The notes under the pieces are model-generated. The model ran no database searches. It saw only the letters and a list, made by a program, of their open reading frames with translations, and was not told where the DNA came from. Of a DNA stretch of 32,000 nt, positions 1-32,000 are shown piece after piece (the stretch's first letter is position 1; every line of letters begins with the position of its first letter). Origin of the DNA: Candidatus Saccharimonadota bacterium (lineage in GTDB: Bacteria; Patescibacteriota; Gracilibacteria; BD1-5; UBA6164); the NCBI GenBank assembly GCA_965229705.1, contig OZ245922.1:420001-452000 (forward strand), in the 5' to 3' direction. The translations under genes were made by a program, and so were the position numbers.

Positions 1-2180
1 ATGCTGGAAAATATACAGAAGAAATCTCTGACTACGAATGAATGCACTACAGAGAAGCAAATGATGTGATCACAGAAAAACTCAAAGAACTATGAAGACT
101 CTTCAAAAAAGAGTCTATCAATCACCGAGTCGCAATGTGTCCTCGTAGTGGTACTCCCCTCATTTATAAAGCGCAAGACTCATGGTTTATCAATATTCAA
201 GATCTCAAAGATAAGCTCATCGACGAAAACGAAGGAATTAACTGGCAGCCAGGGCATCTCAAACATGGACAATTCCTAAAGTCTATGGAAAGTGCTCCTG
301 ACTGGTGTATCTCTCGAACACGATATTGGGGAACTCCTATGCCAATATGGGTAGGTCGAGATAGTGACGGAAAAGATCAGGATATAAAGGTTTTTTGAAG
401 CAAACAAGAAATAGAGTCAGCATCATGAATGAAAATTACAGATCTCCACAGACCATATATTGACGATATCACTTGGGAGGAAAATGGACTCACATATACA
501 AGACTCCCCGAAGTCCTTGATGTATGGATGGATAGTGGCTCGATGCCATACGCGCAAATGCATTACCCATTTGAAAATAGTACTGAGATGGAAGCCAGCT
601 ACCCTGCTGATTTTATCGTTGAGTATATCGGACAAGTCAGAGCCTGGTTTTATGTCATGCATGTTGTCGGAACAGCGCTCTTTGATAAACGAAGTTTTAC
701 CAATGTTATTACAACAGGAATCGTCAACGGATCTGATGGAAGAAAAATGAGTAAATCATACGGAAACTATCCAGATCCTCGAAAAACTATTGAGACATAT
801 GGCGCAGATGCTATCAGATTTTATATGGCAAACTCTCCCCTACTTACAGGTGGGAATATGGATTTTAAAGAAGAATGAATCCTCGAAGTTGTGAAGAAAT
901 TGATCCTCCCACTCTGGAATACCTATTCATTTTTTACGACTTATGCAAATATAGATTGATTTGAACCTATGAACTCTCAAAAAATTAAAGTTCAAGGAAA
1001 CTGAGATTTTTCTGAGAAGAGCATACTTAATAGTAGGAGTTCGAAGAAAATATCTCAAAGTGACGATGAAATTTGAACTTGTTCAAAGCTTCAAAGAAGT
1101 AATCCTCTCGATATCTGGATTATCTCAGAAGTACATAGTCTTACTCAGCAGGTTACAAAAGCAATGGAACACTATGAAGTTACCGAGGCTACTCGTCCAA
1201 TTGTACAATTTATGGATCACCTCACTAACTGGTATATACGTCGAAGTAGGAAGCGTTTTTGGAAAAGTGAAAATGATCAAGATAAAATGCAAGCCTACGA
1301 AACGCTCTATGAAGTACTCATAGAACTATGTAAAATTATGGCACCTTTTACCCCATTTATTACCGAAGAAATATATAAGAATCTTACAGGGAACCTGTCT
1401 GTGCATTTAGAAGATTTTCCTACGAGTAATAGCTCACTCATAGATACTGATCTCAATGCAAACATGAGTCTCTGCCAAAAAATTATTAGTCTTGGTCTTT
1501 CTCTCAGAACAACTCAAAAAATCAGAGTAAGGCAACCTCTTCAAAGTATTTCTATCTGAGAAACGCTTTCTGACTACTACAAAGATATTATTAAAGAAGA
1601 ACTCAATGTGAAAGAAGTCCTCCAAGGAGATAGTAGTTCTATCGCAAAAAAAATATGTAAACCAAATGGTCGACTCATTGGACCAAAATTTGGAAAAGAT
1701 GTAAAAAATATTATTTCACAAGCAAAAGCTGGAAATTTTACAGAAATAGATCAAAATACAATCCTAATTCTCCCTCTTGATAAAGAACAGAAGGGGTGGG
1801 AACTCACTTGAGATGAGTTTGAAATAGCATTTATCAGTGAAGATCACTGTGATAATATCGAGTCATGATTTGGTATGGTGATTTCTATGGATCTAGAGTT
1901 GACTGATGAACTTGTTGCGGAAGGTTATGCTCGTGATATAGTGAGGCATATTCAAGAAGCACGAAAAGAAGCAGGCTATGAGGTTGATGATCGTATCTGT
2001 ATATCTCTCACGCCAGACCTATCGTATTGAGAAGGAAAATGAGTCTCTATTCTTGAAAAATTTTGAAAATATATAGAGTGAGAAACCCTCTCATCACTCG
2101 ATACATCACTCTCTCATGGAGATATCGAAAAAGATATTGAACTCGGTGAAATGACTACAAAGATTATTCTAAAAAAATAA
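1..2180 (+). CDS. ileS: Isoleucyl-tRNA synthetase (5' end outside window; codons phased from nt 3)
   Basis: One frame is open to TAA 2178-2180 when in-frame TGAs are read through. Track fragments 135-398, 429-878, 1164-1559 and 1608-1811 all lie in this frame. Motifs: HRVAMCPRSGTPLIYKAQDSWF, KMSKS loop (GRKMSKSYGN), NWYIRRSRKRFW, C-terminal ELVAEGYARDIVRHIQEARKEAGY. Confidence 0.95.
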
Positions 2181-2188
2181 ATACTCAT

Positions 2189-2794
2189 ATGAACAAAAAA
2201 GAACTACAAGATATGCTCTGAGAAATAACAAAAAATATCGGTCTTTTGGATTTTTATCTTTCGGAAAACAAACTCCTCAAAAAAACAAAAACTCACTTTT
2301 TTGTTTCAGATCTTGATGAGACTCTCTTTTCTCGCAAAAAACAACTCAAAAATGAAGAAGGGCTAAGAAAAAATAGAGGAGAAGCATGAAACACCTATAT
2401 GGTCAATAACATCGGTATTTATGAGATGATAGAAAAGTATTATGTGAAAAAAAAATATCCCCAAGAAATTATTACCACCCTTCACGATCAAGAAAGTCTC
2501 ATACTCACTGCCGGTATGCCCGAGTATCAAGAAATGAAGAAGCGAGCTCTTGGTTTTGATGATATTCCTATGCGTGTGGTAGTGAGTAGTGAGGATAAGA
2601 TTCTTGAGCTGATCAGGTATGTGTTATTTCGACTCAAGTATCTCCCAAAAACTATTACCATTTATGAAGATAGACCAGAGTACTTTATCAAGTATCGCCC
2701 TCTTATAGAAAAAGTTCTCTCATGTCAGCTAAAAATTATGAAGGTAGAAATGGATGGCAACAACGGATACAAAAAGATTGAAGAGGTTTCTTAA
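2189..2794 (+). CDS. HAD-superfamily-like hydrolase (201 aa)
   Basis: ATG 2189 to TAA 2792-2794 with read-through TGA at 2219 and 2387. N-terminal FVSDLDETLF fits HAD motif I (DxDxT). The remainder is unassigned. Confidence 0.55.
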
Positions 2795-2874
2795 AAAAAC
2801 CTGAGAAACCCCTTTTTTCTCTCCTTTTCCAAAGGAGAGATTGCTCGATAGAGCCAGAGAGAATTAGAAATTTT

Positions 2875-4389
2875 CTATTTTTCAGAATTTCCTGAAATCT
2901 CTTGTAATTGTTCTGCATATAATTCTCTTCCCTTTTTTGTCGGAAAATTCCCACTAATACATCAGAGACACATATCTTTTACTTCAACCTGTAGGGCATC
3001 AATAAGCCTCTCTTGGTTTATGTATCTCAGGGAGTTTGCTCAGAGATGTTTCGCAAGTCTTTCGAGCTCATAGTCTTGAGGATTTTGAGGATTTTGAAAG
3101 AATCTATTTGCGAGTAATTCTTCAATTTTGCGTAAGTTAATTGCATAATAACATGGGGCCATAATAGGTGGAGAAGGTATGCGGATATGTACCTCGCTTG
3201 ATTGAAAAAAGTTTTTTACGATTTCTATTAGATATTCAAGTGTTGTTCAACGAACCATACTATCATCTATGAGAATCAATTTTTTTCAGCGAATTTTATC
3301 GATAAGTCCTGGATGAAAAATATATTTCTTTTTCAAAACCTCTATCCTTTCTTCTCTTGTTTTTGCGATAAATGATCGCTTATCAAAATCAGGGTTTTTA
3401 AAAATAGCTGCCTCAAAATGCTGTAAGTTGAGACTATCAGCGTAACCATCAGCACTATCTTTGGAACTAGCTGGAACATGTATCACAACACTATCTTCTC
3501 GAGAAAAGGTATTTCTATCAGTATCTGCAAGATTTTGCCCAAGTCTATAGCGATGTTCACTTGATGTTTCTCCCCAGAGTTGTGTTTTGGGATCAGCAAA
3601 ATATACGGTTTCAAAAAAACAGTGTGATGTTTTTATAGGAAGATCGATATCCATAAGTGACTGCTGAACCTGTGATGATTGTGGTGAAAACTTTATAGAT
3701 TCTCCAGTGTCTACTACCTTGATATGTTTACTATGAATTTTAACTCGTCATAGTGCGCTACTCTCACTTGAAAAATAAATATTTCACTCATGAACACCAT
3801 GAAATACAGGACGAAAACCCCATCTATCTTTTGTAAGGGTAAATCATCACTCACTGTCTGCAAGAACAATATTACAAGATCCATCTATCTTTTCATTAAT
3901 ATTTTCTAAGATTCTTTTGGTATTTTTTTCTCAAGACTTGATATTACTGCGTATCATATATTCAAGTACTTTTGTATCAAATATGGGTCTCTGGAAAAGT
4001 GTTTCGCCTTGCTGCTCTTCAATATTTTGTGCAATATCTTCTGCATTAGCAATATTTCCATTAAAAGCAAAGGCATGATGAAGTCCTGTTTTAATCTCAA
4101 ATGGTTGAAAAGACTCTGTTCATGCTTCGTTTCCTCAACTTGTGGGGTAACGAGCATGTCATATGATTCCGATAATATCTCGAGCTGTATCATGGACTTG
4201 CTGATATATTTGAGGGTCGTTAAGGTCTGTAAACTTCAAAGTTTGTATTCCATCTTGCGCTGTTACGACTGAGAGACCATATCATTCTTGTCCTCTATTT
4301 TTATTTCAACGAAGGAGATTGAGGGCGATTTGTGGAAGATCAGACTTCGATGTTCTCTCTATATCATAAACTCCTATTATTCAGCACAT
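2875..4389 (-). CDS. purF: Amidophosphoribosyltransferase (glutamine-PRPP amidotransferase), Fe-S type
   Basis: ATG at 4389 to TAG 2875-2877, verified codon by codon. Motifs: N-terminal M-C-G(TGA)-IIGV nucleophile Cys, NRGQEG, GHARYPTSGG, AFNGNIAN, RWGFRP, PRPP loop KKLILIDDSMVRGTT, and cluster-type cysteines (HCFFE, APCYY, CLGC). Track fragment 3286-3654 is in the same frame. Confidence 0.93.
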
Positions 4390-5633: not shown

Positions 5634-6365
5634 CTACCAACTCTCCCCTTCATCACGATTTCCAGAAGAAAAAAATCTTCTCATCTCAGGAGGAAGAAAA
5701 TTTTCAGAAAAAAAGCTATCGAATCCTCTCAGTGGATCTCAAAATAAATTTTCACTCTCTTGAAGCTCATCCTGTTTTCCAAAAAATTGCTGATTTTGTC
5801 TCTGTTCGTCTTTGAGAGACTCTATAACATTCTCTAACGCTTGAGATTGCTCTTGTGTGAGTCAGTTTTCTTCACCAAGTGATGATTTCTCTTCATCATT
5901 TTCTTTTCATATATTACCTTCTTTTTTCGATGTTCACTCATTTTCCTCAGAAGAATTTCCATCTGCAGTATCATCTTCAAAATCTTGCTGTGAATTCTGA
6001 TGTGATGAAGATTCATCTTGAGAAAGAAGTTTTTCTACTAGTTCAAGATTGTAGCGTGTATCAGGGTGTTCCTGCTTTTGGAGAGAAGCCTGAAAAAAGT
6101 CTCTTGCCTGTTCTCAAAACGATATTTCTCCTGTTTGTATAAATATCTGATAACTGGTGTTTCCGAGGTTATGTAAAACTTTAGGGTTTTTATGGTTCGT
6201 ATATTTTTGGAGTATTTCTTCATATTTTTCTTCTTGATACAAAAATGCTATATCTTTTGATACAAAAAAGTGATATAGTCCCTGTCAAAGAATATATACA
6301 AGTATGAGTAAAAAAGCTCATAATGCACAAGAAAGAAAGATATTTTTTATCAGGTTGTTATCCAT
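5634..6365 (-). CDS. BatC-like membrane-anchored TPR protein with acidic tail
   Basis: ATG 6365 to TAG 5634-5636 (243 aa) after TGA read-through. It has an N-terminal TM helix (NIFLSCALGAFLLILVYILG) and TPR-like helices (AFLYQEEKYEEILQKY...NLGNTSYQ...ARDFFQASLQ). Its start overlaps the stop of the upstream vWA gene (ATGGATAA). Confidence 0.7.
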
Positions 6366-7260
6366 AATGTTTACGAAGAAACAATATACAAAATGCGAGC
6401 CACAAGATACAAGATAGGTATATCAAAGAGTCCATGCCTCCAAAAGATTTTTTTTCTCAAAGAGAAAATTCTTCTCAAAAATCCAAATATACTCCAGACA
6501 CATCTTTTGCAAGTTTTTGTAGCACAGAGGCTTGAAGTCCAGAGTATACCTGTCTTCATTGATAATATATTCCAGGGATAGGAGACTTTTCTTCTTGACC
6601 AACACCAATAAAAAAAATCGATATACTCTGCGTTTTTACTTTTTCTTTTAGGCTGGCAGAAAGTTGTAGTTCTTTTTCATGACCGTCACTATATACTATG
6701 AGTGTTCCTCTATTTTCTCAAAAATGATCCAGAGAATCCTCTAGTCCTTTCAGCATATCACTTCCTCACTTTGATATACTCTTTGAAGAAACTCCTGAAA
6801 GAAGAGTCAAAAATATCTCTCTGTCAGTTGTAAAAGGAATAATTCTTTGCGTTTCTCCAGCAAAAATATTGAGTGCAAAACTATATCATACAGAACGCTC
6901 AAGTATTTCTGATATATTTATTTTTGATGATTCTAAACGGCTCTTTCTTCACATATCAGTAACATTCATACTTTCAGATGTATCGAGGAGAAATATGACT
7001 TTTTCTGCTCAACTTATCGACTCTTCACCATTTTTCTCAATCAAAAAAAATCAGCACAGAAGACCTATAAAGCTCAATACCAAAAAGATTTCTCACATAT
7101 ATTTCTTTCAGAAAGTTGTGAGAAAGCTACTTCATTTTCTCGAGAACAATCTCAAACTCAGTACTTTCAGCACTTGAGACCAGTTTCTTAGGCAATATTT
7201 TTTTATTTCTCAGAGTTTTCTAAAAAATACTCTTATAATGTCATAATTTTTTTTCTTCAT
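6358..7260 (-). CDS. BatB-like von Willebrand factor A (vWA) domain membrane protein
   Basis: ATG 7260 to TAA 6358-6360 (300 aa), checked codon by codon. vWA MIDAS region KVIFLLDTSESM, then NIFAGETQRIIPFT, LIVYSDGHE, IFFIGVG and a C-terminal TM segment. The whole frame is invisible in the standard-code track. An alternative start is at 7098. Confidence 0.8.
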
Positions 7261-8231
7261 AGCAACAAGAGTTGAAAAAGTATACTCAATATAAAAAGTA
7301 TCATAAAAAATTTCTCAAGAGAGTTTTTCTCTACAACTATATCTACTTCTAGTAAATGCTTTTCTAGCTCAGAAATCTCGCGAAAAACCTCCCGAAGCAT
7401 CTTCTCATCTTCTGCTCAAAAATACTGTCATCAAGTCATCTCTGCAAGAGTTCAGAGCGTCTCGCTATCAACTCACTCTACCATAATTCTCTGCATCAAT
7501 CACAAACTATGTGGTAAATACACGGAGCTCTCTCAGGGTTGTCACAGTCCAACAGTATAGAGAATAATGGATTTTTCTTGAAGAAGTTTTCCTGCAATCA
7601 GAGGATCTACTCATGTATTTGCAGATCCGTCACTGAGAAGGATCATTATTTTTTTTCTCTGGTTTTCTCAAAACATATCAGACCCAAGTAAAAGAGCATC
7701 TCATATAGCTGTTCCCTGAAACTTTTGAAAACGAAGTCCTTCTTGGGGAATGATATCTACCTCAAGGCGACTCATAAATTCTTCGAGAAATCAAATATCA
7801 GAAACAAGCGGAATACTCTGAAATGCCTTTCCTGCAAAAAGAACCAGTCACACTCTATCTTGAGAAAGTTCTACAAAAAACTCTTGGAGTACTCTTTTTG
7901 CTGTTTCGAGTCTATTGGGAGACATGTCTTGCGCGAGCATTGAGTAACTCAAGTCGAGTATCACAACGATATCACGCCCTTTTTGACGAGTTTCTTGTAG
8001 TTCATAGCTCTGATATGGTCATGCGAGAAGACCTCATATACAAATAAATGAGATGAGCATACTACATATGAGGAGAGAAAAATATATTGAGTTGTTTCTA
8101 TATATCTGTAAAAGGAGCTTTCCTTGAGAAAAATTTTTTTGCTTCTTCACTCTCGAAATATACACAATAAAAAAAACTGCTACAAACAAAAATGTCAGAA
8201 ATACCAAGGGATATTCAAAAGAAAAAAACAT
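7233..8231 (-). CDS. BatA-like vWA domain membrane protein
   Basis: ATG 8231 to TAA 7233-7235 (332 aa). N-terminal TM helices, MIDAS DIVVILDLSYSM, SPNRLETAKRVL, RVGLVLFAGKAF, GTAIGDAL, IMILLSDGSANTG, LYTVGLG, a TGGQYF motif and a C-terminal TM segment. Confidence 0.87.
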
Positions 8232-8241
8232 AAATAATGGG

Positions 8242-9228
8242 TTATGTATCTTTTTTATGGTGTGTCTTCTGCGAGAGTGATACAGAGGAAAGATACGAGA
8301 TAAGTTCCTCTATATATTTTTGTGCCTCTTCTCTGTAAGATGATCATCACGCTATTTTGGAGTATTCATTCGTGTATGTCCTGCGAAAAATATCAAACAG
8401 TTCAGGATATGCTCATAGCTCTTCCTGTTGCAGCTCTTTCAGGCTCGAAGTTTTTGCATGCATGAGACCCAGGTGATGAAAATAATTTCTCAAAATATGA
8501 TGCAAGCGTGCATAAAACTCTTTTTTAGAATATTGTGGAATCTTTTTTTCGAGTTCTTGGATGAGTCTTATATACTCCTCTTCTTCTGTTTTTTGGTAAA
8601 GCATTATTTTTTTGTTTTTCAGAGAAGTATCAAGTACATCTTTCTTCTGAACAAAATATAAATACAAGAGAGTATAAAATCCTGAAAGAAACACAAAAAC
8701 TCAGGCAATGCTCACAATGAGAGGAAATCTCTCCAGGCGTAAAGGTCGAAGAAGAGTATCTCATAGTTTTTCTTGTTGCATGCTTGACTGAGGTATATCA
8801 GTATTTTGCTGTTTTTTTGTATTTGGTATTTGTGCAGTATGAATATTTTGAGATACCATAGTTCCTATCTGCAAGGTATAGGTCTCGTCGTCTATTATTT
8901 CTGTGTTGGTATCAGAAATCCTTACTGGACCAAGAGTAAAATTCCCTTCTGTATATGCCTGAAGTATTATCTGATAACTACTTGATTGTGACTGCTTGCC
9001 ATTGATACTCTGAAAGCTTGATGACTGCGACTGAGAAATAATATCAAAGTTTTCTATTCCAGGAAGTTCTATCTCTCCAGCTTGTACTCATGAGAGAGAT
9101 ATTTCTATGAAAAATCTCTCTCCTACGACTCACTGAGTTCTGTCAACAGAGAGCTGTATTTTGTCACTTGCAGAGACGGTATAAAGAGGAAAAAATATGC
9201 AGATTAGCAATAGAATAAAACCTTTCAT
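8242..9228 (-). CDS. BatD-like / DUF4381-like membrane protein (signal peptide, beta-rich ectodomain, TM, helical tail)
   Basis: ATG 9228 to TAA 8242-8244 (328 aa). Signal peptide MKGFILLLICIFFPLYTVSA, then VGERFFIEISL...GNFTLGPVRI (BatD-type N-domain), a TM helix and a helical region (EFYARLHHILRNYFHHLGL...T..EL) like DUF4381. Its position just upstream of batA-like fits the operon pattern. Confidence 0.65.
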
Positions 9229-9342
9229 AAAACAATAACATATATATTTCTTGTATCATATTCTCTCACAGCTTTTATGAAATATAAAAAAGAGAAATAA
9301 AACTTGATAATTTATCAAAAACCATTTTAATAAAAAAAAATT

Positions 9343-10425
9343 ATGCATAAAAAAAATACTATGAGTCTCGATCTTCGAATAAGTGTCAGTAATGAAAAAT
9401 ATCATCAAGAAATGCAAGGAAGAATTGCCCCTCTTTTACGGGCATGATTTACACAAGAGTTAATTGAAAAAGCAACCGTAAAAGTAAATGCCACTCTTTG
9501 GATGAAACCCGAAGAAAATATTATACCAAAAATTCAAGGACTCAAAAATCTTGGATTTGCAGATCCTGTGAAACTTATCTCTGCTTTTCCACCAATCCTC
9601 GGTTGTAGTCTCGAAGAAAATATTAGGCCAAAAATTCATATCCTTGACCACTTTATACAAGATATATCATTAGGGAGAGAGCTCATCATACGAGCCCCTG
9701 AAATACTCTCAACAAAGAAAGATAAGTCGTGGATCATTCTGCGTTGACTCTATCACTTATGATTCTTACAAAAAGAATATTATGAGAAAGTGGTACAAAA
9801 CTATAAACGAATCAATATAGAAAATATTGAAAACTTTGTTATTGCTATTATCGAAACTCAGGAGTGAAATGTCAGTGCCAGTGATCTTCTCAAAAAAATA
9901 CGCGAGGTAAAAAAGAGAAGCATAGAAAAAGAAGAAAAGAGAAATTTCCTACAAACCTCTCTTCAGAAAGGAGATTCCAAGAAAAAACTTATTGAAAGGT
10001 ATTTCCGAGGGTATCCTCTCAAAAAAGCGTCTACTCAAAAAAAAACATACTACATAAGTTTTTTTCTCTCTTCAAGCAGTTTCACAAAAGAGAGGTATAT
10101 ATCGGATAATTCGGTGAGAAAAAGTGTTTGAACTCCTATCTTTTCAAGAGCAGATTTCAAAGATTTTTTTTCTTGTAACCTCGCTAAACGATACTGTTCT
10201 CTCTTGCGAATATCTGCAGTATCTATAAATATTTCCTTTTCTCACAGGCTCAGATGACAAATACCCTCTCATTCAAGGGTATCCTCAAATTGACTCGAGA
10301 GATGTATATATATGATATCATGTTTTTGTGAAAGCAGACTCAAACTCTTACTATCAATATCTAGAGTATCACTGAGAAAAAACAGCAGTGATTTCTTCAT
10401 TTTGCAGGAGAGCATACTGCGATAA
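9343..10425 (+). CDS. mTERF-like helical-repeat protein; 3' end uncertain (no TAA/TAG before 10423-10425)
   Basis: ATG 9343. Repeats EENIIPKIQGLKNLGFADPVKLISAFPPILGCSL and EENIRPKIHILDHF...LIIRAPEILS resemble the mTERF motif. The DNA-level repeat GAAGAAAATATTAnnCCAAAAATTCA occurs at 9511 and 9613 (102-nt period). Beyond about 10050 the frame runs antisense through the DUF58 gene and looks non-protein-like. Confidence 0.5.
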
Positions 10426-10886
10426 TCCCTACTGTCACATGAAGAAATATGTTTCATTTTTTCGTCTATTTCTTTATAAAAAAACGGAAGATTTTTATGA
10501 GGTTTTCTTGGCTGTATAAAAGTATTTTCTCCAGAAGAGAGTATATAAGCTCAGAGATTTTCTCACAGTGACTCTGCAATATCTGCTATATGCCTCAAAA
10601 CTTTTTTCATCAGATGTTTCTTGAGATGGTCTTCATAACTCAAAGTCTCACTTATATCACATACACACAAAATATTGATACTTGTTTCTTCGTGATATGT
10701 TCGCATCAATGTTTTAGTGCTACGAGTCGATACCTGCCAATCAATTCGTTTAGCATTATCTCCATAAGAGTATTCTCGATAATGATGAAACTCTTGTCCT
10801 CCACCTCAAAAATGAGAACGAAAATTTCACACCAAAAAAGAAGCAAGAGCTTTTTTTGGGAAAATCTTTGGATATAGTTTTTTCAT
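10050..10886 (-). CDS. DUF58-family protein (MoxR-associated)
   Basis: ATG 10886 to TAG 10050-10052 (278 aa). Motifs HFGGGGQEFHHYREYSYGDNAKRIDWQVSTRSTKTLMRTYHEE and ILCVCDISETL are classic DUF58. It lies 22 nt downstream of moxR. Confidence 0.87.
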
Positions 10887-10908
10887 AGTATTTTTTCTCA
10901 GATTTCTC

Positions 10909-11850
10909 TTAGTGATTCAAAGGAACAAGAGAAAGTATCTTTGTTATAACATCATCAGTGGAAATTCATTGAGCAAGAGCTTCGTAACTCAATGAGAGTC
11001 TGTGTCTAAGTACTGGGTATGCCATCTCTTTTATATCTTCTGGAAGTACATAATCCCTTCACTGTAAAAGAGCATAAGCTCTTGAAGTTTGCAGTATAGC
11101 AAGTGACGCTCGTGGTGATGCTCCATAATTTAGTTCTGTGAGTTTGGTTATTTCTCTGCTATAGGCAATAATATTACATATATACTCGTAGAGACTCTCT
11201 GAAACTTGTATTGTTGTGAGATGTTGTTGTATTTCTGATATATCCTCTTTTGTAATGCAGGAAGATATTTTTTGTGCGTTTCGAGTATCAGCTGACATGA
11301 GAATCTCTTTTTCTTCTTGTATGCTCGGGTATGGAACCTGAGACTGGAGGAGAAATCTATCCATTTGTGCTTCGGGGAGTTCGTGAGTTCCTTCTTGTTC
11401 AAGAGGATTTTGTGTTGCGAGAACAATAAAAGGTTGAGGGAGAGAAAAAGTTTTTTCCGCAATAGTCACTTCCAATTCCTCCATAGCTTGCAATAGAGCT
11501 GACTGAACTTTACTTGGAGCTCTATTAATCTCATCTGCGAGGATGAAGTGAGCAAAGATAGGTCCCTTTTTGATTTCAAACTCTTTTGCGTCAGGATCAT
11601 ATATCCTTGCTCCTATGATATCACTTGGGAGCAGGTCAGGAGTAAACTGTATACGACTTTCTTGCAAGTGTGTTGCCTGTGAAAAGGCTTTTACCAGTCG
11701 CGTTTTCCCAAGTCCAGGAGCTCACTCAATCAAAATATGTCATGAACACATAAGAGCAATAGTGATATCTCTTTTGAGTTCTCATTGACCAATGATGACT
11801 TTTGAGACTTCATCTATGAGCTGTGTGAGTTTTGCTTGGATTTTATGCAT
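10909..11850 (-). CDS. moxR: MoxR-family AAA+ ATPase
   Basis: ATG 11850 to TAA 10909-10911 (313 aa). Walker A is I-E-G(TGA 11722-11724)-APGLGKT. Other motifs: IQFTPDLLPSDIIG, Walker B ILADEINRAPSKVQSALLQAMEE, LATQNPLEQEGTHELPEAQMDRF, GASPRA. Confidence 0.94.
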
Positions 11851-11987
11851 AATGTCTAAATAAAGAAACTACTTTCCTTAGTATAATGATATTTGGTGCT
11901 CTGAGAATTATGTTATGTAAAAAGGAAATTGACTTTTAATACAAAACACTAAAAATACTCTTATCTACACATATAAAAATATTTAAA

Positions 11988-12731
11988 ATGCAAACATTCA
12001 AAACAGGAGATTACTTATATGAATGAACAATTATCGGAAATCCTCTCCTTATCCCGGAAAGGCCTATTGCACAGAATACTAGATTAGTAAGTAATATGAT
12101 ATGAAAAATATTAAATACTTTATGACAAACTCCAAATATACATAATTTAGGAACTTCCTTTCCTCAAGTCAGCCTTTCCAGAGAAAGCTCATCAGCTGGT
12201 GAATGGTGTGCTGTGAATCTCCAAAATCCTGTATATATCGGACTTGAAGAATGTATATCCCCATTTCACACAAAGTATGTTATTCGTCCCTGAAGGTTGT
12301 GAAAAAATATAAAGATATGACTAGAAAAATTTGATGAAGAATACAGACCTCTAGAAATACATACTAACCGCGTAATAGAAAAGGGAGTAGATCTTGGATT
12401 GCTCAGAGAGTTATCATATGGTGAGTATATAGAAGAACAAATAAAAGATTGTGATACTTTTATAGAAAGCAGGTGAGTAAAAGATTTAAAAAGACAGTTT
12501 GAAGAATATAGAGACTGTCTTGAAGATTTTCGCTGACTCTCAGATATAATATTTAAAGTACAGTGATGAGAGGTAGTTATGGAAAGATTAAAGCAAGGAA
12601 ATTTTTGACTGTTTTTCGTTATGAGTTCAAAAGGCTGAGGACAAAGGAAAAAAAAGAAAAAACAAGAGGAACGGTCTCCTGTTTTTGGGGATTTCTGAGG
12701 ACTTATCCCACGACTTGGGAGTAGATTGTAA
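11988..12731 (+). CDS. Orphan protein A (247 aa), no family recognised
   Basis: ATG 11988 to TAA 12729-12731, verified line by line. The frame is open across 13 in-frame TGA and has no TAA/TAG in 744 nt of AT-rich DNA. Globular-looking composition with a Lys-rich C-terminal tail. Confidence 0.6.
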
Positions 12732-12741
12732 GATATTAAAA

Positions 12742-14138: not shown

Positions 14139-14576
14139 TTATAAATCTATTTGCTCAATACTCGCTCCATTAGCTTTCACAAAATCCTGTATTTCATTTC
14201 CTGAGTGATGTTTATACTTTTCACAAAAGACAATACGCTGTAAACCTGCCGCAATGATAGCTCGAACGCAGTCAAAACAAGGTTCATAAGTACAGTAAAT
14301 CGTTGCTCACTCAATAGCAATTCCTTTTCGTGCTGCCCAAACTATTGCGTTCATCTCAGCATGAATCTCGTATTTGTATGACCACTCGTGATGTTCTTCT
14401 GTGTATTTTCCATCAAAATAATCTGAACAGTTTATGTATCCAGAAGGTGTTCCATTGTATCATGTTGAAGCAATTCTTCCGTCTTTTACAATCACTGCTC
14501 ATGTTTGACGAGAAACACACTTTGAAGCACTCGCTATTTCATAAGCAATGTTGATAAAATTTTTGTCTTGAAGCAT
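14139..14576 (-). CDS. dCMP (deoxycytidylate) deaminase, ComEB/Dcd-like
   Basis: ATG 14576 to TAA 14139-14141 (145 aa). Zinc motifs HAEMNA and PCFDC, plus GAVIVKDGRIASTGYNG. Confidence 0.87.
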
Positions 14577-15195: not shown

Positions 15196-15325
15196 TTCTA
15201 TTTTTTTACAATGTAAGTCTTATAGTCCAGTATAACGAAAAAAGAGAAAAAACGAAAAATTATATTTGAAAATTCATCCTCTGGGAATACTATTCTGGCA
15301 AAGAGTATTTTAAAAAAGTATTGTC

Positions 15326-16726
15326 TTGTTTTTCAAGAAAAAAAACATCCCCTGAACCACAAAATACCATACATTTATAGGAATACAGGCAAGTTCTCTG
15401 GTGTGAGTATTTTTTGTTTTGTGTCTTGCTTTTTTTTCTGTAAGAGCTATCGAATCCATTGATTTTCATGCTTTTGACCAAGAAACTCCTGAGTATACAT
15501 ATACAAACTCTATAGAAGTACTCCAGAACAACAAACAAGAGAAGAAACAAGATATGACCTATATACTGATAGTAGGAAGATGAGGTGGAGAACATGATGC
15601 TCCAAATCTTACAGATACTATTATGCTTGCTGGTATAAATAGAAAAAAAGAGTCTATCACTCTCTTCTCCATTCCGAGGGACCTCTGGATAAAGTACCCT
15701 GATAAAAAAACCGAAGGAAAAATCAATAGAGTATATGAAAAATATGCAGATACGAGTACACAACTCGCGATCACTCATCTAAAAAACAAAGTCTCGCAAA
15801 TAACAGGAAAACACATAGACTATTATGCGAGTGTTGATTTTGAAGGATTTATAAAAGTTATCGATATACTCGGATGAGTAGAAGTAACTCTTGAAAAGAA
15901 TTTTGTTGACTACCAATACCCTGATGACAATTTATGATACAAAACCTTTATACTGAGAAGATGAACATGGACCCTTGACGGAGAAGTAGCACTGATGTAC
16001 GCTCGATCACGACACTCAAGTAGTGATTTTGATAGATCCCTCAGACAACAAGAGATCATATCATCACTAAAAGATAAGATAGGTGAACTAGGATATATCA
16101 GCGATGCAGGAAAAATCATGAGTCTCTATAATACCTTTACAAAGTATGTAGATACTGATCTTACACTGAAAAGCCTTATAAGTCTTGGACTTGAGATAAA
16201 ATCATGGGACGATACTCAAACACTCAGTTTTAACCTCAATGATACTTGTTATGAGTGAAGTGATATCTGTGATACAGGGTGATTTCTCTATGTCCCAATG
16301 AGAACATATTTTTCATGAGCAAGCGTTCTTCTTCCTCATGATGCCGACTCTATATACCCTGAAGTATATGATGAGATACATAATTATGTAGACTACATCA
16401 ACACCTTTCCTGAAGCATTTCTTGAAGAAAAAAACATACATATATACAATGCTGCTGGTATACCTTGACTTGCAGGAAGGATGTGAGACACTATCCAGAA
16501 ATATGGTTTTTCTCTCGATCCCTACGTATCACTTCATACGCTGCGCTCTTGGGATGGACAAGAAAATGTGATATATATAAATACTGATCTCAAAAATAAA
16601 GAGTCTGTTGCTCAAGTCCTACAAGATATCACTGGTATTTCTCCAAGTTTTGTCCTCTCTCCAACACAAAAACACAATGCAGAAATAGAAATCATCCTCA
16701 CACAAGATACAAAAACTATACAATAA
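15326..16726 (+). CDS. LytR-CpsA-Psr (LCP) family cell-envelope protein; non-ATG start assumed
   Basis: The frame is open from 15314 to TAA 16724-16726. It has a TM helix (VGVFFVLCLAFFSV) and motifs ILIVGRGGGEHDAPNLTDTIMLAGIN, FSIPRDLW, DYYASVDFEGFIKVIDILGGVEV, ALMYARSRHSSSDFDRSLRQQE, plus a C-terminal LytR_C-like region. The first in-frame ATG is 15554, downstream of the TM helix, so TTG 15326 or GTG 15401 is the likely start. Confidence 0.85.
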
Positions 16727-20067: not shown

Positions 20068-20685
20068 ATGTACACAGATATACATGATTTTCCAACTCTT
20101 GCGAAAATAGATACTCTAGCTCCAAGCTTTGAAATGCCCTATTATTGCCCGAAAAAAGATGATGAATGAGTCTTGCATCTGCAAGATCTCAAAGGAAAGT
20201 GGGTTGTTCTCTTTTACTATCCTGCAGATTTTACCTTTGTGTGTCCAACAGAACTCAAAGATATGGCTGACTCGAAGGCACAGTTTGATAATATGTGAGT
20301 AGAAGTACTTGCCGTATCTACTGACACGATTTTTTCTCATAGAGCCTGGGTCAAGCAGGAAATCCTTATGAAAAACTTTCCCTATAAAATGCTCGCAGAT
20401 CACAATCTCGAAACAGCTGACTGCTATAATATCCTTGATGAAAAAACAGGTATTGCAGGTCGTGGGACTTTTATCATTGATCCTGAAGGGATTCTCAGAG
20501 GTATAGAAATCACTTCTGGTCCTTTAGGGAGAAATAGTGAGGAGTTATTACGAAAGATAGAAGCATTGCAGTTTATGTCTGCAAATCCTGGTGTTGCCTG
20601 TCCAGCAAAATGGACCGCAGGCTCAAAAACACTTACCCCTTCTATCAAAATAGCAGGTGAAGTTGGTGAGCAGCTAGAAAAATAA
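20068..20685 (+). CDS. ahpC: Typical 2-Cys peroxiredoxin (AhpC/Tsa family)
   Basis: ATG 20068 to TAA 20683-20685 (205 aa). Motifs: [15 protein letters not shown] (peroxidatic Cys), [11 protein letters not shown], resolving Cys in GVACPAKW. Confidence 0.93.
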
Positions 20686-20690
20686 AAAAA

Positions 20691-20720
20691 TAAGAGCAGA
20701 GAATCTGCTCTTATTTTTTT
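20691..20720. terminator. Bidirectional hairpin terminator between convergent ahpC and the ATPase gene
   Basis: 9-bp stem TAAGAGCAG / CTGCTCTTA with loop AGAAT. It is flanked by an A7 run upstream and a T7 run downstream. Confidence 0.8.
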
Positions 20721-21982
20721 CTAATACTGAAAATATCTCTTTTCAGACCTACTTTTGTGATATCTTCAAATAAATACTCTACTCATTTCTCATATCTCTT
20801 TTTGTATTCTCCTCAGCGAGTAATGATCGCACGAGGTATTTTATCTTCGTATTTTCATACAAAACTCAAGAGAGATTTTGGAATAATGTCTTTTTTTCCT
20901 GATTTGATTTCAATAGGAAGTATCATATTTTCAAAATTATCGAGCATCACAAAATCTACCTCTGTACCATTCTTATTTTGCCAAAATTTGATATCTAAAA
21001 AATCTGGAGATACAAAGCGAATTTCATTGTATGCATAGTTTTCAATAATTTTTCCATAAAAATTGGTGTCGAACGAAGAAGGTCAAAGAATATAGTTTAA
21101 AAATCCTATGTCATTCATATATCATTTTCTTGATTTTTTTATTTCATTTTTAAGATTTCAAGAAAATGGTTCTATAAAATCAAATAAAAAGCTTGATTCT
21201 GCTATCTGTAAAAATTTTACATAGAGTTTCTTTTTGATGCCAAGCTCTGCTATAATTTGTTCCGCTTTTATGAGACTTCATATTTTCGTAGCAAAAAGCT
21301 GTAAAAATTTTATAAAGTAAATATTTTCATCTTCTTGAAGCAAAAAGCCTATATCTTTGTAAAGATAATCATCATAAATACTTTTAAATACCCATTTTTT
21401 TTCTTGCTGTGTTTTTGCTTTTACGACTTCTGGGTATCATCCATAACGTAGATAGATTTGAAAATTTTTCTCAATTTCTTTTTGTATAATAGCATTATTC
21501 TCTGGCATTTTTTCTACATTCATTCATTCAAATTCTAAAAATTCTGAAAATGAGAAAGGGCGTACTTGGATAAGATTATATCTTCCAATCAGACTGTCAG
21601 TAATACCGCGAAATACTTCTAAGCTCCCACTCCCAGAAATAATAAGTTTGAGTGAAATATCACCTTGTTTATTTTTATCAACGAGATATTTAATGATAAT
21701 TCCAATATTTTTAATTTTCTGGGCTTCGTCGATAATCAGGTATTTCTTATTTGAAATATCATAACGAAATTCTAAGAGTTCTAGGAATTCTTTCGGAGAA
21801 AAATTTTCTAAGAAAAACTCATCTCCACTCAATACCAGTTCTTCATTCACGATTTTTTTTTCGCGCAAGATTTGTATGAGGGAGCTTTTTCATACTTGTC
21901 GTGCTCAGACAAGTATTAGTGCATTTTTATTATCAAGGCAGCTCTGAATTCTTTCAATATATTTTTTCCGATAAAAAAGCAT
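20711..21982 (-). CDS. AAA_14 / DUF4143-type ATPase (423 aa)
   Basis: ATG 21982 to TAA 20711-20713, checked codon by codon. Walker A LVGARQVGKSSL, Walker B LIIDEAQKI, then GGYPEVV and the C-terminal GKIIENYAYNE...NGTEVDFV...PIEIKSGKK typical of DUF4143. Confidence 0.85.
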
Positions 21983-22344
21983 ACTTTTCAAAAAATTACA
22001 ATATATATTTCTTTTAAGTATGCTTTTTTTACAAAAATTGCAATATTTTCGTAGGTTTTTCTTCGAGAATCATAGCAGAAATATATTTTTCGATATAAAA
22101 AGTTCGAAATTCTCATGAGATATGAGTTATTGCTCGTTTGGTCTGCCTAGAAGGTCATCGTTTCATGAATGATCCCATGTAGAATCCCATGTTTCAATGA
22201 TTCATGTTTCTCTGACTTTATAATATATGGTAGTTGTTACAATTGTAGCAATTAGGTTTTGTTTTTTTCTACTTTATGATGTTATCATTTCTCCCCCATC
22301 CCTTGTCAAAAAAATCACTATTTTTTTGAGGAAAAAAAGATATA

Positions 22345-23130
22345 ATGATGAAAGCTATGGAAGTAAAACTAAAAAAAGATATGCAAAAAATTGATATACA
22401 AGACTACGAAAAAAAGATCCGTTCTTTACAGAAAGAACTTGAAAAATTTCGTCCAATACCTGAAGTGCAACTGAAAAACTTACAAAACTGGTTCAACATC
22501 TGATTCACTACTCATTCAAATGCTATTGAAGGAAATAGCTATACTCTCTCTGAAGTAAAAGTCCTTATAGAAGATGGTATTACTGTATGAGGGAAAACTA
22601 TTCGTGAAACAAAAGAAACTGAAAATCTCGCTGAGATTACACAGTCACTCTGGAGCTTTTTTGAACAAGACTTTCTCCTGACAGAAAAGTTCCTCTATGA
22701 TATGCATCGAAAGCTCCTGAAAGGTATAGAAAAAAAATATATAGGAAAATATAGAGATTCTCAGGTATTCATAACTGGAAGTGAAGATATTCCACCAAGT
22801 TCAAAAGAGCTCCCAAAACTTATGCAAGAGTTTATATATTTTTGTAATAGCGAGACTTCAAAAAAAGATTGCCTAAAAAAAATCTCAGATATACATTTTC
22901 GCTTTATAAAAATACATCCATTTTTTGATGGAAACGGAAGAATATGAAGACTTCTCATGAATCTTTTTCTCGTAAAATATTGATATTTCCCTATAATTTT
23001 CCCGATAGTTACGAGAATAGAATATATTCAAAGCCTGTGAAAAGAAAAAAATTCCGAAGATTTTTATAAATATTTTCTCTGGCAAATGTATGAAAACATA
23101 AGTGACTATTTACGATTTTTCCAAGACTAA
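22345..23130 (+). CDS. fic: Fic-domain protein (AMPylase-type), class II with N-terminal inhibitory motif
   Basis: ATG 22345 to TAA 23128-23130 (261 aa). Fic motif HPFFDGNGRI-G(TGA 22945-22947)-RLLMN at 22915-22950. The [S/T]xxxE[G/N] inhibitory motif SNAIEG lies at 22516-22533. Confidence 0.9.
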
Positions 23131-27657: not shown

Positions 27658-27684
27658 ATTATGATAATTTAAAAAAATAGTCAA
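27658..27684 (-). promoter_or_regulatory. Putative sigma70-type promoter of the minus-strand cassette
   Basis: The minus strand reads TTGACT (27679-27684), a 15-nt spacer, then CATAAT (27658-27663). The roughly 90-nt leader contains a 9-bp stem (27607-27615 / 27627-27635, one G-U pair on the minus-strand RNA). The spacer is shorter than optimal. Confidence 0.3.
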
Positions 27685-27763
27685 ATATCTTTTTCTGAAA
27701 ATGCGTGAAAAAATCGTATTTTTTCCTATAGTAAGGGAAAGAAAACTCTTTTTATAAAAAAGT

Positions 27764-29377
27764 ATGGTCAGTCTCAAAAAAATATTTCTCTTACTCTTGT
27801 GTATCTTGTCTCTTTTGCAGAGCCATAACAGCTTTGCTATACTATGAGAAGATCTCGGACTTGATCTGTATAAACAAATAGACTCAGGAATAAAAGACCT
27901 CCAAATACAACAATATCAATATGAACTCTCAGGACAATGACAGACAAATATACAAAATGTCCTCACTCCAATATTTGAAAGAGAATGAATCAACTGTGAT
28001 ATACGCTCTAGCTCAGACATAGAAAACTTTCTCGGAAATACCGCAGAAGATCAGGTGGCATACATTTTTGAAAAATGCTGATTTTCTGATGAAAACCCTG
28101 CTCCCACAGAACTCATATCAAAAGTAGTCTCTATCAGCACATACATCAAAAATACCTACTGACAAAAAGCCCAAGCAAAGACAGACGCCCTCTACAATGT
28201 TGCACGAACAGGAATATACAATGATGGAAATAGGGAAAATTCACCTTTTGATCTCATCGTTGATCTACAAGATATTGACAGTATCATCTTCTCCGAAGAG
28301 ATTCCTTATGAATGAATAGAGTATCCACTCTCAAACCAAGCTCTCCAAAATTTTATTGATGACAATATCAATGATCCTCTTACAGGAATTATCACTGATA
28401 TAGCTCTATGAAATAGCGATGAAGCAGCTGCTCAATACGCACAAAATATGGAAAGTTCTTTTGAGACATTTTTCCCAGCAAATTCACTATCACATAACTA
28501 TGTCTGTACAACTGATGATAATATTGCCAGTTTTTCTGTATCTGATGTTGAGCAAGCTCGCCCATCAACAAGTAGCAATTCTTCTCAAGTATGGATGTAT
28601 TCTCAAGAAACTGCTAGTAGCGGTGCAAGCTGGTGATGACCATTTCCATGACAAACACGTAGCGTCACATATAACGCCTATACTGACGAGTGGGGTTGTA
28701 AGGCTGGAACATTTTTTTGTATTGTTATAGCGTTTGAAGACGATAACTATGGTATGAACTCCTCTGATACTTTTAGTGTAGAATGAGTAATCACCCGAGC
28801 ATGAAAACATCTTGAAAAAGCCGCAAACACTTCCCTCACGCAGAAAAAAATGACCACTAATAACTTTGAGCTTGGTGCTATTATAAGCGATCTTCCATGA
28901 ACTCTTAGAGGTTTTTGACTTGAGGTAACGACTCAGCCTGTTCCCATACTTGAGGTGCAAAACTCAAAAAAATCTCAAGTGAATGGAGATATGTATCAGA
29001 TAGAAAATCTTCTATACACCTACTATAAAAATAATGGTCTCGACTATAAAAGAGCAAATGATTTACGAATATTTTGAAGTATCAGTGGAATAGCCCCAAG
29101 TGAGCAGGAAGAAAAGATCTTTCAGACAAGTGAATGAATGCCTCTCAATTATGTAGAACAAAGAAGAAATAATCTCAAAAAATTTATGTCAGCCCTCGAA
29201 GAAAATAACAGACTCGTATCAGAATCTGTAGAAAAACAAATTATCCATGATGATATGAAAAAATTCAATAAAAGCTTTTCTGAACTAGAACAGTTTGTCA
29301 AAAATATTGAAGACTTTGTAAAGTCAGTAGCATGAACTGTAGAAGTTTTGGAAAAAATACCTACTCGCTCCAGCTAA
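27764..29377 (+). CDS. Secreted orphan protein S1 (537 aa)
   Basis: ATG 27764 to TAA 29375-29377. Track fragments 28448-28636 and 29138-29335 are in phase. Signal peptide MVSLKKIFLLLLCILSLLQSHNSFA; several cysteines; helical charged C-terminus. No family recognised. Confidence 0.7.
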
Positions 29378-29379
29378 AT

Positions 29380-30657
29380 ATGATAAAATATATTCTTACA
29401 TTTTTGATAGTCCTGTGAAGCTCTAGCATCGTGTATAGCGCTGATGAATGTAGCGCAAGTTGCCCAATAGTAGATACTCCAGCTATTGCTCTCACAGAAT
29501 ACTTTACCAATATGGATGAGCTTATCAGAAGTGTATCTGGAACTATCAGAGCTGAAAAAACACAACAGTGAGATACCGCAATAGAAAAAGATATCTATAA
29601 AACTCGATCGAAGATCATGACAAGTTTGAGTCAAGCACTCAGCTTTGAGGAGTATTATGGAAGTTTTGATTTTCATATCGCACTTCCCATGACTCAAACT
29701 ATTCCAAAACCTATAAAAAGGGATTATAATACCATACGATCCTACACTCAGCGACTCACGCAAATGCTCGAGATATACGAAAGAAGAGGTGCAGGATGAA
29801 ACACTCTTCCAGATATATGTGCACGACTCTCTTACTGTGAATTTCCAGAAGATATAAGCGTGAGGGATCTCCTCACGCAAGCCATCAATAACAATACTCA
29901 AGTACTCCTCTTATTCACGCAGTCTGTCTCTGGAAAAGATACCAGTAATATACAACTTACACTTGTGAGTCCTGATTTCACATCACAAATACTCCAGTAT
30001 TATAATTCTCAATCTCTCTACGAGTGTAGTCAGTGTCAATGAGAAGTAGTAGCTGATTTTCGTGAACAAATATCCAATATCACTATCAAAACAAAAAATT
30101 ACCAAGACGGAATCCAAATCTGGAAAGATGCCTGGAACTTACTCACAGGAAAAGACCCTCAATGACAAAAAAGAAGTGAAGAAGACAGAGTCCTCAAAGA
30201 GTATCTTTCATCGCAAAACATCAACTCAGGACAAGGAGATATTGTAGTAGAAAATCTCAAGAGGTATGAAAGTTCATGAATATCAAGCTCTGATCCCCTC
30301 ATGAACTCAGAGAGGTATTTACAAGATGCAACTCAAAGAGAAGAAAATACCTTTCAGCAGACACTTGCGGAAAAGTTTAAAAATCAAGAGAGAGTTTCTA
30401 TCACAGATATTGTGAAAGCAAATAAGCAAATATCAAATACCGCTGATATAGAAAAGAGTATTAATACGCTTTTTGAAGAACAAAAACCTTTTGCTTTTAC
30501 TCAAGATGTTGCGACCCAGCAAGTACAGTCTCGCCTCATAAATATGCACTACTCACTTACAAGGTCTATCAATATATTGGAAAACATTTCTCAAAGAGCT
30601 TCCAAAGTATGTGACCGACAATGAACGGGTCTCGGAAAATGTAACTATAGTAGATAA
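29380..30657 (+). CDS. Secreted orphan protein S2 (425 aa)
   Basis: ATG 29380 (2 nt after the S1 stop) to TAA 30655-30657. Track fragments 29617-29799, 29860-30042 and 30301-30624 are in phase. Signal peptide MIKYILTFLIVLGSSSIVYS. Paired cysteines: CSASC, CARLSYC, CSQC, CDRQGTGLGKC. Confidence 0.7.
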
Positions 30658-30668
30658 CTTTTCAAAAA

Positions 30669-31412
30669 ATGCTCACAAAGAAACAACAAGAAATCCTCAG
30701 AAAAAATGGAAAGATTCATAAAAAAATATTTGCAGCTATCAAAGATATGCTTGCCGTATGAGTGAGCGCAAAAGAGGTAGACCAACTCGCTCTCAGGATG
30801 TGCCGCGATAGCTGAGTCGTTTCTGCTTTTACCTGAGTATATGGCTATAAATATACTCTTCAAACGAGCGTAAACAGTGTTGTTGTGCATGGAAGACCTC
30901 TGTCGTCTATCATATTTCAAGAAGGTGATGTAGTAACAATAGATTTTTGAGTCAAAGATAAGGAGTATGGGATTTGTACTGATGCTGCATTTACGACTAT
31001 TATCTGAGACGCTGATACATTTCCGGAAAAAAAAGAATTTCTACGAGTATGAGAAAAAGCTCTGAAAAAAGCTCTTGCAAAAGCAACCGCAGGAAATACT
31101 ACCTGAGACATAGGGCATGCTATAGAAAAATATGTCGAAAAACATGACTATCATATTATTCGAGATCTTACCGGACATGGGGTTGGAAAGAGCTTGCATG
31201 AACAGCCATATATTTATAACTACGGAACTCCTGGTCAGTGACCAGAACTCAAAGCGTGAATGGCACTTGCAATAGAACCTATCATCGGGTATTCTTGTGG
31301 TAAAATCACTGATGAGTGAAACTGGGAAATATATGTTGCTGATGGGAGTCTTGGTTGCCAGTTTGAGCATACGATTTTGGTAACTGAGGGAGAAGCTGAA
31401 ATTATTGTGTAA
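30669..31412 (+). CDS. map: Methionine aminopeptidase, type I
   Basis: ATG 30669 to TAA 31410-31412 (247 aa). Motifs: VVHG, metal ligands in DFGVKDKEYGICTDAAFT, GHGVG, LAIEP, FEHTILVT. Confidence 0.93.
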
Positions 31413-31421
31413 CAATATAAA

Positions 31422-32000
31422 ATGAAGTTCCAACAAGCATATACAGATTTTCTCGACTGGCTCGAAGCAGTAAAAAATAAATCTCAAAGAACTGTAGAGC
31501 AGTACGGGAGGCATCTTGAGAAATTTTCTGAGTACCTCGAAGAAAAAAACATTGATAGTTTACGCTTCGAGGTAGAAAAAATAACATTAAAACTTGCTGA
31601 GTGATTTCGGTCATATCTGTATAAAAACAATAAAAATATTTCTATCAAAACGGCAAACGCTTATATGATTACTCTCAGGAGTTTTCTCAAGTATCTCGAA
31701 AAAAAATGAATAACTTCTCTCTCCCCTAGCTCTATTGATCTCATCAAAGCCGAAGCTCGAAAAGTCGAGTTTCTCACAAATGAGGAACTAGAAAAAATAT
31801 TTGCTATCCCAAACACAAAGACACTCATAGGAAAGCGTGACAGAGCCATTATGGAATGTATTTATTCAACAGGACTGCGTATTTCAGAGCTTACCGCGCT
31901 CAATAAAAATGACATTAACTTACAAACGCAAGAATTTGCCGTGAGAGGAAAGTGAAGAAAGCTCAGAGTCGTCTACCTCACAAATACTGCTACCTGACTG
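31422..32000 (+). CDS. Tyrosine recombinase, XerC/XerD-like (3' end outside window)
   Basis: ATG 31422. N-terminal SAM-like core-binding domain (FLDWLEAVKNKSQRTVEQYGRHLEKF, TANAYMITLRSFLKYL) and the start of the catalytic domain (FLTNEELEKIF...RDRAIMECIYSTGLRISELTAL). Confidence 0.85.

Follow-up and report, generated by a model that had tools for sequence, protein, structure and literature searches.

We analyzed a 32,000-bp stretch of contig OZ245922.1 (hereafter the window; positions 420,001 to 452,000 of the contig, with a GC (guanine plus cytosine) content of 35%) with respect to the meaning of its TGA codons. Judged from its sequence, the window is almost certainly ordinary chromosomal DNA of a Gracilibacteria-type bacterium (BD1-5/GN02, Candidate Phyla Radiation (CPR)) that uses translation table 25. 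In this code, UGA would specify glycine, only UAA and UAG would terminate translation, UGG would remain a tryptophan codon, and the remaining codons would keep their standard meaning; these parts form one joint claim, which we hold with the same very high confidence. For this lineage, the reassignment of UGA to glycine, the tRNA involved, and the release factor 2 loss are already documented, the near-complete genome is already public, and no new question is opened. The value of the result is one of annotation rather than discovery: any reading of the window needs table 25, and the reassignment fixes the taxonomic frame (CPR, Gracilibacteria-type) for the rest of the window.

Reading frames, stop codons, and codon usage

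Under translation table 11, with TAA, TAG, and TGA as stops, the longest open reading frame (ORF) comprises 308 codons including the stop, and ORFs of at least 200 amino acids (aa) span 5% of the window. With only TAA and TAG as stops, the longest ORF extends to 1,116 codons, likewise including the stop, and the coverage rises to 92%. Freeing TAG (stops TAA and TGA) or TAA (stops TAG and TGA) yielded longest ORFs of 323 and 308 codons and a coverage of 20% and 10%, respectively. For 50 random sequences from a first-order Markov model, again with TAA and TAG as the only stops, the longest ORF had a mean length of 198 and a maximum of 265 codons, with a coverage of 0.9%. Thus, only the opening of TGA lifts the ORF coverage, and it does so far above the random level, indicating that the effect is specific for TGA and beyond chance. 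This comparison bears out two statements of the initial annotation of this DNA, namely that the genes are broken in the standard code and whole when only TAA and TAG stop, and that a standard-code annotation is wrong here, as table 11 fragments every gene. ORF length is blind to the choice between tables 4 and 25.

Twenty-eight candidate ORFs were translated with X at each TGA, which presupposes no amino acid, and scanned against Pfam. The domains run uninterrupted across TGA codons; in MoxR, for instance, AAA_3 is matched over positions 1-131 of 131, and in ClpC AAA_2 over 1-165 of 166. The 20 homology-supported gene models (Table 1), comprising 7,555 codons, contain 194 in-frame TGA codons versus no TAA and no TAG. 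Of the 19 closed genes, 14 are terminated by TAA and 5 by TAG, in line with what had been stated for the closable genes, and the seven positions at which TGA had been singled out beforehand are in-frame TGA codons without exception. The fragmentation of every gene under table 11 is also what pseudogenes or assembly debris would display if TGA were a stop codon of the standard code. The in-frame counts, the full-length Pfam domains across TGA, the position of TGA on glycine columns, and the retention of the pattern in relatives, the latter two described below, leave this explanation virtually no room.

With 194 occurrences, followed by GGA (171), GGT (82), GGG (41), and GGC (18), TGA is the commonest glycine codon in the gene models, accounting for 38% of the glycine codons and 2.6% of all codons across every kind of gene. 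The glycine share amounts to 6.7% of the codons with TGA and to 4.1% without it. When TGA is counted as tryptophan, the proteins would comprise 3.3% tryptophan and 4.1% glycine, which is an abnormal composition.

The amino acid specified by TGA

Seven of the X-masked proteins were aligned to solved structures from standard-code organisms, and the printed alignments were tabulated by script. The targets were B. subtilis ClpC (PDB 3j3s), IleRS (8c9d), P. aeruginosa PBP1a (4oon), B. subtilis PurF (1ao0), MoxR (2r44), T. maritima methionine aminopeptidase (1o0x), and, for the Fic-domain protein, C. elegans FIC-1 (5jj6). The initial annotation had named in advance tryptophan, gaps, or termini opposite TGA as the pattern that would speak against glycine. 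Of 77 TGA columns, 40 (52%) lie opposite glycine, 7 opposite alanine, and 5 opposite aspartate, the others being scattered; tryptophan and cysteine are absent, and inside the aligned regions none of the columns faces a gap. For comparison, GGN columns pair with glycine in 69% and with tryptophan in 2% of the cases, TGG columns pair with tryptophan in 14 of 22 (64%) and with glycine in none, and any other tabulated amino acid is aligned to glycine in at most 6% and to tryptophan in about 0%. Given a glycine background of 7.1% in the targets, the binomial p value is 5e-26 for the first 72 TGA columns. Moreover, when scored with substitution frequencies from the same seven alignments, the log-likelihood ratio at the TGA columns is positive for glycine alone (+48.3 nats), asparagine being the next best (-5.1), with cysteine at -24.8 and tryptophan at -104.7.

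The ClpC protein of the window was in addition aligned to 145 diverse ClpC/ClpB cluster representatives (50% identity) from a 1.84-billion-protein library; four sequences rich in Trp, which may be table-4 translations of recoders, were excluded. Glycine occupies the TGA columns 262 (Walker A) in 145, 341 in 139, 649 in 143, 654 in 130, 691 in 144, and 698 in 140 of the 145 representatives, and tryptophan was found in none of them at any TGA column. The best match in a public protein collection, P0001, is identical to the window ClpC except for W at all 18 TGA positions, including the glycines of the Walker A and GYVG motifs. Thus, the collection has translated this contig with table 4, and in relatives translated in this manner W stands for TGA or TGG and can be used as a TGA marker. 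In 119 close ClpC homologues, which are partly table-4 translated, the conserved TGA columns contain nearly exclusively G or W, with few A or N (G 63 and W 56 at column 262; G 65 and W 54 at column 649), as opposed to the conserved TGG column 121 with W 112, F 7, and G 0. The W residues at the conserved TGA columns are the TGA codons of these relatives themselves. TGA and GGN hence swap freely at the same sites, and TGA behaves like a synonymous codon of GGN. The same W-for-G pattern is carried by many Gracilibacteria ClpC homologues in the public protein collection.

These data bear directly on table 4, the Mycoplasma-type code in which TGA specifies tryptophan. Table 4 predicts the same ORF lengths as table 25, and it is the code with which the public collection did translate the contig. 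However, tryptophan occurs at 0 of 77 TGA columns compared to 64% of the TGG columns and has by far the lowest of the log-likelihood ratios given above, the ClpC Walker A and GYVG residues are glycine in 143 to 145 of the 145 representatives, and the resulting amino acid composition would be abnormal. We therefore consider table 4 extremely improbable, in agreement with the earlier remark that TGG is still tryptophan and that the code is not of the Mycoplasma type. The organisms using table 4, comprising Mycoplasmatales, Entomoplasmatales, and several insect endosymbionts, have likewise lost the UGA stop and possess small AT-rich genomes with an identical TAA/TAG-only ORF structure, but differ in the amino acid, as UGA is tryptophan there, and glycine and never tryptophan in the window. 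As applied to this contig by the public collection, which holds 5.8 billion clusters, table 4 puts tryptophan at 38% of the glycines, those of the ClpC Walker A and GYVG motifs and of the MoxR Walker A motif among them, and such W-for-G errors would lead homology searches, motif calls, and structure prediction astray.

The initial annotation had further described TGA as sitting on invariant glycines. This holds for ClpC, where 130 to 145 of the 145 representatives have glycine, and for MoxR, where the Walker A residue is glycine in 2r44. It does not extend to the glycosyltransferase codon 17205-17207 of the class A penicillin-binding protein (PBP), which lies opposite threonine in 4oon, nor to the Fic codon 22945-22947, which corresponds to alanine or serine in FICD proteins (PDB 5jj6 and 6i7g). 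The second residue of PurF (4381-4383) we take to be an invariant glycine from family knowledge of the Cys1-Gly2 start.

A codon-by-codon table drawn from the same alignments shows that the other codons all match their standard meaning. Correspondingly, the IleRS motif NWYIRRSRKRFW pairs W-to-W with NWYVRRSRDRFW of PDB 8c9d. In Absconditabacteria (SR1), which share UGA as a glycine codon, CGA and CGG are in addition reported to be reassigned to tryptophan (PMC8629427). For the window, such a second reassignment was rejected for CGA, as the CGA columns contain arginine in 12 of 29 cases and no tryptophan. For CGG the evidence is thin: only 5 such codons are present in the gene models, and the two that were checked both align to arginine, one of them being that of ClpC, whose column is arginine in 117 of the 145 representatives.

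Lineage and the proposed decoding of UGA

The lineage was placed by ClpC as a single marker in combination with NCBI labels. The best match, P0001 (862 aa), is located on one 1,006,762-bp NCBI/ENA contig, and the second-best match, which is the closest protein from another genome, shows 84% identity. The named proteins among the best 120 matches are all from Candidatus Gracilibacteria, GN02-872 included, with 63-76% identity, and no ClpC labelled Absconditabacteria is present among these 120. The taxonomic frame proposed from the genetic code was therefore right, and with 84% identity to the closest other genome and at most 76% to named relatives, the DNA would derive from a distinct species or genus inside the Gracilibacteria group. 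UGA as a glycine codon is known solely from Gracilibacteria/BD1-5 and Absconditabacteria (Shulgina & Eddy 2021, PMC8629427; 2026 gTranslate preprint, 10.64898/2026.05.24.727570), the latter study equating table 25 with the GTDB class JAEDAM01 and its orders BD1-5 and Absconditabacterales. The first description of this code came from Absconditabacteria (Campbell et al. 2013, cited in PMC8629427), and the glycine assignment was validated by proteomics in a BD1-5 bacterium (PMC4032931). The table-25 genomes of Candidatus Gracilibacteria (HOT-871, CP017714.1; GN02-872; and the closed BD1-5 genome of PMC6851277) share with the window UGA as glycine, UAA and UAG as stops, and UGG as tryptophan, as well as a low GC content, a contig of about 1 Mb, and the ClpC similarity given above.

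Several points weigh against our reading. About half of the TGA columns lie opposite residues other than glycine in the single pairwise alignments; GGN is likewise off glycine in 31% of its columns, and the TGA misses are found mostly in variable regions. The ClpC TGA column 676 is alanine in 141 of the 145 outgroup proteins; close relatives contain G, W (TGA read as W), or A at this position, which fits a lineage-specific change from alanine to glycine. Moreover, ARAGORN detected no tRNA gene in the 32-kb window, the tRNA-Gly(UCA) and the lack of prfB are features that we infer for this genome from relatives and the literature, and the decoding of UGA in this organism is known from DNA alone. 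An Rfam search of the window at gathering thresholds returned no families.

Based on relatives and the literature, we propose that a dedicated tRNA with the anticodon UCA and the GlyRS identity set (G1:C72, C2:G71, G3:C70, U73) would decode UGA, and that release factor 2 would have been lost, with the consequence that nothing would compete at UGA. The same tRNA-Gly(UCA) identity rules apply to Absconditabacteria and Gracilibacteria, both of which read UGA as glycine (PMC8629427), and no prfB was detected in the BD1-5 genomes available at that time, prfA being present (PMC6851277). A genome scan for the anticodon UCA in combination with the bacterial glycine identity set (G1 C2 G3 ... C70 G71 C72 U73) yielded at least 120 loci, and ARAGORN predicted a tRNA(UCA) in 93 of the 120 matches listed; the counts by label and the single loci given in the following refer to these listed matches.

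Two types of tRNA(UCA) prevail, together accounting for at least 88 loci. Type A, present at no fewer than 64 loci, is a highly conserved 79-nucleotide tRNA in which CCA is encoded and the D region is long and unusual; the loci are labelled Gracilibacteria (41), 'Peribacteria' (11), Patescibacteria (6), Ca. Altimarinus (1), or are unnamed (5). HOT-871 and GN02-872 both carry it. Type B, present at 24 loci or more, is a 74-nucleotide tRNA of different sequence without CCA, labelled Absconditabacterales/Absconditabacteria (6), 'Peribacteria' (10), or other or unnamed (8), and represents the dedicated glycine-identity tRNA of the Absconditabacteria. Within the 8-kb flanks, ORFs of at least 150 aa cover a fraction of 0.20 under table 11 versus 0.85 with TGA open for type A, and 0.17 versus 0.68 for type B; 27 chance-match control loci without a tRNA show an ORF cover of 0.94 under table 11. 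The flanks of types A and B are thus recoded and those of the controls standard, which indicates that tRNA(UCA) and recoding travel together in relatives. The tRNA(UCA) of this genome would probably be close to GCGGGGGTAACATAAAAGAGTGAGTGTACTAAGGCTTCAACCCTTGGGTGTGCCAGTTCAAACCTGGTCCCCCGCTCCA. A search of the 120 listed loci with the window proteins (tblastn) gave only five scattered matches, which do not place the window with respect to the two tRNA types. The type-A tRNA is nearly invariant over 64 genomes with a locus GC content ranging from 19 to 57% (for example at positions 6520-6595 of locus L036, HOT-871; the GN02-872 copy is at L064), and its atypical long D region, TAACATAAAAGAGTGAGTGTA, is without the usual GG.

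ARAGORN by default labels tRNAs with the anticodon UCA as 'SeC', which would be compatible with selenocysteine insertion or, more generally, with a context-dependent read-through at TGA. Neither process is consistent with a codon that accounts for 2.6% of the codons across all kinds of genes and faces cysteine at 0 of 77 columns, nor is the architecture of the relatives' tRNA(UCA), with a 7-bp acceptor GCG...CGC-U and a short variable loop, that of a selenocysteine tRNA; the probability of this explanation is next to nil. There is a slight chance that the lineage reads UGA as glycine in another manner than proposed here, be it without a type-A tRNA-Gly(UCA), with a retained release factor 2 and a dual glycine/stop meaning, or with real slippage, instead of assembly errors, at the two poly-A frame breaks described below.

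Two side observations emerged from the scan. First, five singleton tRNAs(UCA) with glycine identity (Table 1) are located in high-GC contigs that are clearly on the standard code, in metagenome-assembled genomes (MAGs) labelled Gemmatimonadales, Archangium, Anaerolineaceae, Akkermansia, and Woesearchaeota. The tRNA at locus L099 occupies the glyT slot of a canonical Thr-Tyr-Gly-Thr cluster, which indicates an anticodon change from UCC to UCA, and that at locus L069 lies within a tight array of six tRNAs. Either natural UGA suppression or errors in the consensus could account for these singletons. Second, a tRNA-Gly(UCA) of the Gracilibacteria or Absconditabacteria type is present on 21 MAG contigs with the label 'Candidatus Peribacteria'. 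As these loci sit among types A and B with flanks that are on average TGA-recoded, the NCBI label is an unsafe guide to the genetic code.

Gene content and frame breaks at poly-A runs

The genes of the window are compiled in Table 1, together with the tRNA loci of other genomes mentioned above. For eight window proteins without a Pfam match, NCBIfam likewise gave zero matches.

Table 1. Genes of the window and tRNA(UCA) loci of other genomes. TGA columns refer to the alignments with the PDB entry in the same row.
Feature	Position	Strand	Matches	Codons
IleRS, C-terminal 725 aa (off 5' edge)	3..2180	+	Pfam tRNA-synt_1, Anticodon_1, DUF5915; PDB 8c9d (E=1e-129)	15 TGA, 13 TGG; stop TAA
PurF-like glutamine amidotransferase/phosphoribosyltransferase	2875..4389	-	Pfam GATase_6/7; PDB 1ao0 (E=3e-37); Gly at 8/14 aligned TGA columns, including RGQE-G, II-G-H, VR-G-TT	15 TGA; start M-C-TGA (4381-4383); stop TAG
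Bat-like operon, six genes	5634..11850	-	Pfam AAA_3, DUF58, BatD, VWA_2, unbroken across TGA	
Unknown 243-aa protein of the Bat-like gene string	5634-6365	-		
VWA protein	6358-7260	-		13 TGA
VWA protein	7233-8231	-		16 TGA
BatD	8242-9228	-	Pfam	
DUF58 protein	10050-10886	-	Pfam	
MoxR ATPase	10909-11850	-	PDB 2r44 (E=4e-85); Gly at 3/5 TGA columns	5 TGA; Walker A Gly is TGA 11722-11724
dCMP/cytidine deaminase	14139-14576	-	Pfam dCMP_cyt_deam_1	3 TGA; stop TAA
Fe/Mn superoxide dismutase	14587-15195	-	Pfam Sod_Fe_N, Sod_Fe_C	2 TGA, 6 TGG; stop TAA
LytR-CpsA-Psr family protein (start codon not fixed)	15314..16726	+	Pfam LytR_cpsA_psr, LytR_C	11 TGA
Class A PBP (glycosyltransferase and transpeptidase), 1,098 aa	16740..20036	+	Pfam Transgly, Transpeptidase; PDB 4oon; Gly at 11/22 aligned TGA columns, Trp 0	36 TGA, 41 GGN; stop TAA
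Peroxiredoxin (AhpC/TSA)	20068..20685	+	Pfam AhpC-TSA, 1-cysPrx_C	2 TGA; stop TAA
AAA_14/DUF4143 ATPase	20711..21982	-	Pfam	11 TGA; stop TAA
Fic-domain protein	22276..23130	+	Pfam Fic; PDB 5jj6; Gly at 1/5 TGA columns	6 TGA; TGA 22945-22947 within HPFFDGNGRI-x-R
ClpC/ClpB-type AAA+ unfoldase, 862 aa	24457..27045	+	PDB 3j3s (E=1e-184); Gly at 8/10 TGA columns	18 TGA; Walker A 25240-25242; GYV-G-YEEG-G 26401-26403 and 26416-26418; stop TAG
Two adjacent genes, 537 and 425 aa, signal-peptide-like N-termini	27764-29377, 29380-30657	+	No Pfam or NCBIfam match	
Methionine aminopeptidase	30669..31412	+	Pfam Peptidase_M24; PDB 1o0x; Gly at 7/10 TGA columns	10 TGA; stop TAA
XerC/XerD-type tyrosine recombinase, N-terminal 192 aa (off 3' edge)	31422..32000	+	Pfam Phage_integrase and SAM-like; NCBIfam XerC/XerD	4 TGA
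Singleton tRNA(UCA), locus L099	269-341	-		
Singleton tRNA(UCA), locus L069	1799-1871			
Singleton tRNA(UCA), locus L003	16-90	-		
Singleton tRNA(UCA), locus L030	4985-5055	-		
Singleton tRNA(UCA), locus L085	4566-4638			
'Peribacteria'-labelled loci	L010, L016, L038-L040, L042, L053, L054, L056, L059, L063, L065, L073, L088, L098, L100, L101, L104, L105, L117, L118			

Two places in the window show odd ORF ends close to poly-A runs. On the plus strand, the ORFs 11940-12731 and 12592-13989 lie in neighbouring frames and overlap around an A8 run (12648-12655). They are unusually TGA-rich, with 13 and 22 TGA codons, respectively, and probably represent one gene of about 700 aa that is split by a 1-nucleotide indel or by slippage. 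A homology search with the fused ORF 11940-13989 retrieved only the window's own product, P0273; the ORFs are thus orphans, and the frame break is beyond comparative judgement. The second case, ORF 9361-10425 on the plus strand, passes an A9 run (10037-10045) and then runs on for another 375 nucleotides across the end of the DUF58 gene, to which it is antisense. A shift by 1 nucleotide at the A9 run would close this ORF at a TAA near 10056, which makes an assembly indel likely.

These ends are relevant for a dual meaning of TGA, in which it would mostly be read as glycine yet terminate some genes, or would be ambiguous between glycine and tryptophan by wobble of U34 on UGG and UGA. An ambiguous reading of UGA and UGG by a tRNA with U34 has indeed been noted as a potential (PMC8629427), and the odd ends described above could be taken as TGA-terminated genes. 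However, each of the 19 closed homology-supported genes reaches a TAA or TAG, ClpC with its 862 aa falls inside the range of its homologues (about 850-873 aa), and no TGG column contains glycine. Moreover, indels of 1 nucleotide at the A8 and A9 runs explain the odd ends better, the first TGA being located about 25 codons past the A9 run. We therefore regard a dual meaning as very unlikely, and favor glycine as the single meaning of TGA in the window.

We discarded the minus-strand ORFs 12011-12811 and 13450-13929 as artefacts of antisense reading, since their translations are of low complexity and rich in S, F, and I. The string of genes on the minus strand that includes the 243-aa protein is of the Bat (Bacteroides aerotolerance) type and is here present in a CPR genome. 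Finally, ORF 9361-10425 has a weak Pfam match to mTERF (24.8 bits versus a cut-off of 23.1); an mTERF-like protein would be unusual for a bacterium.

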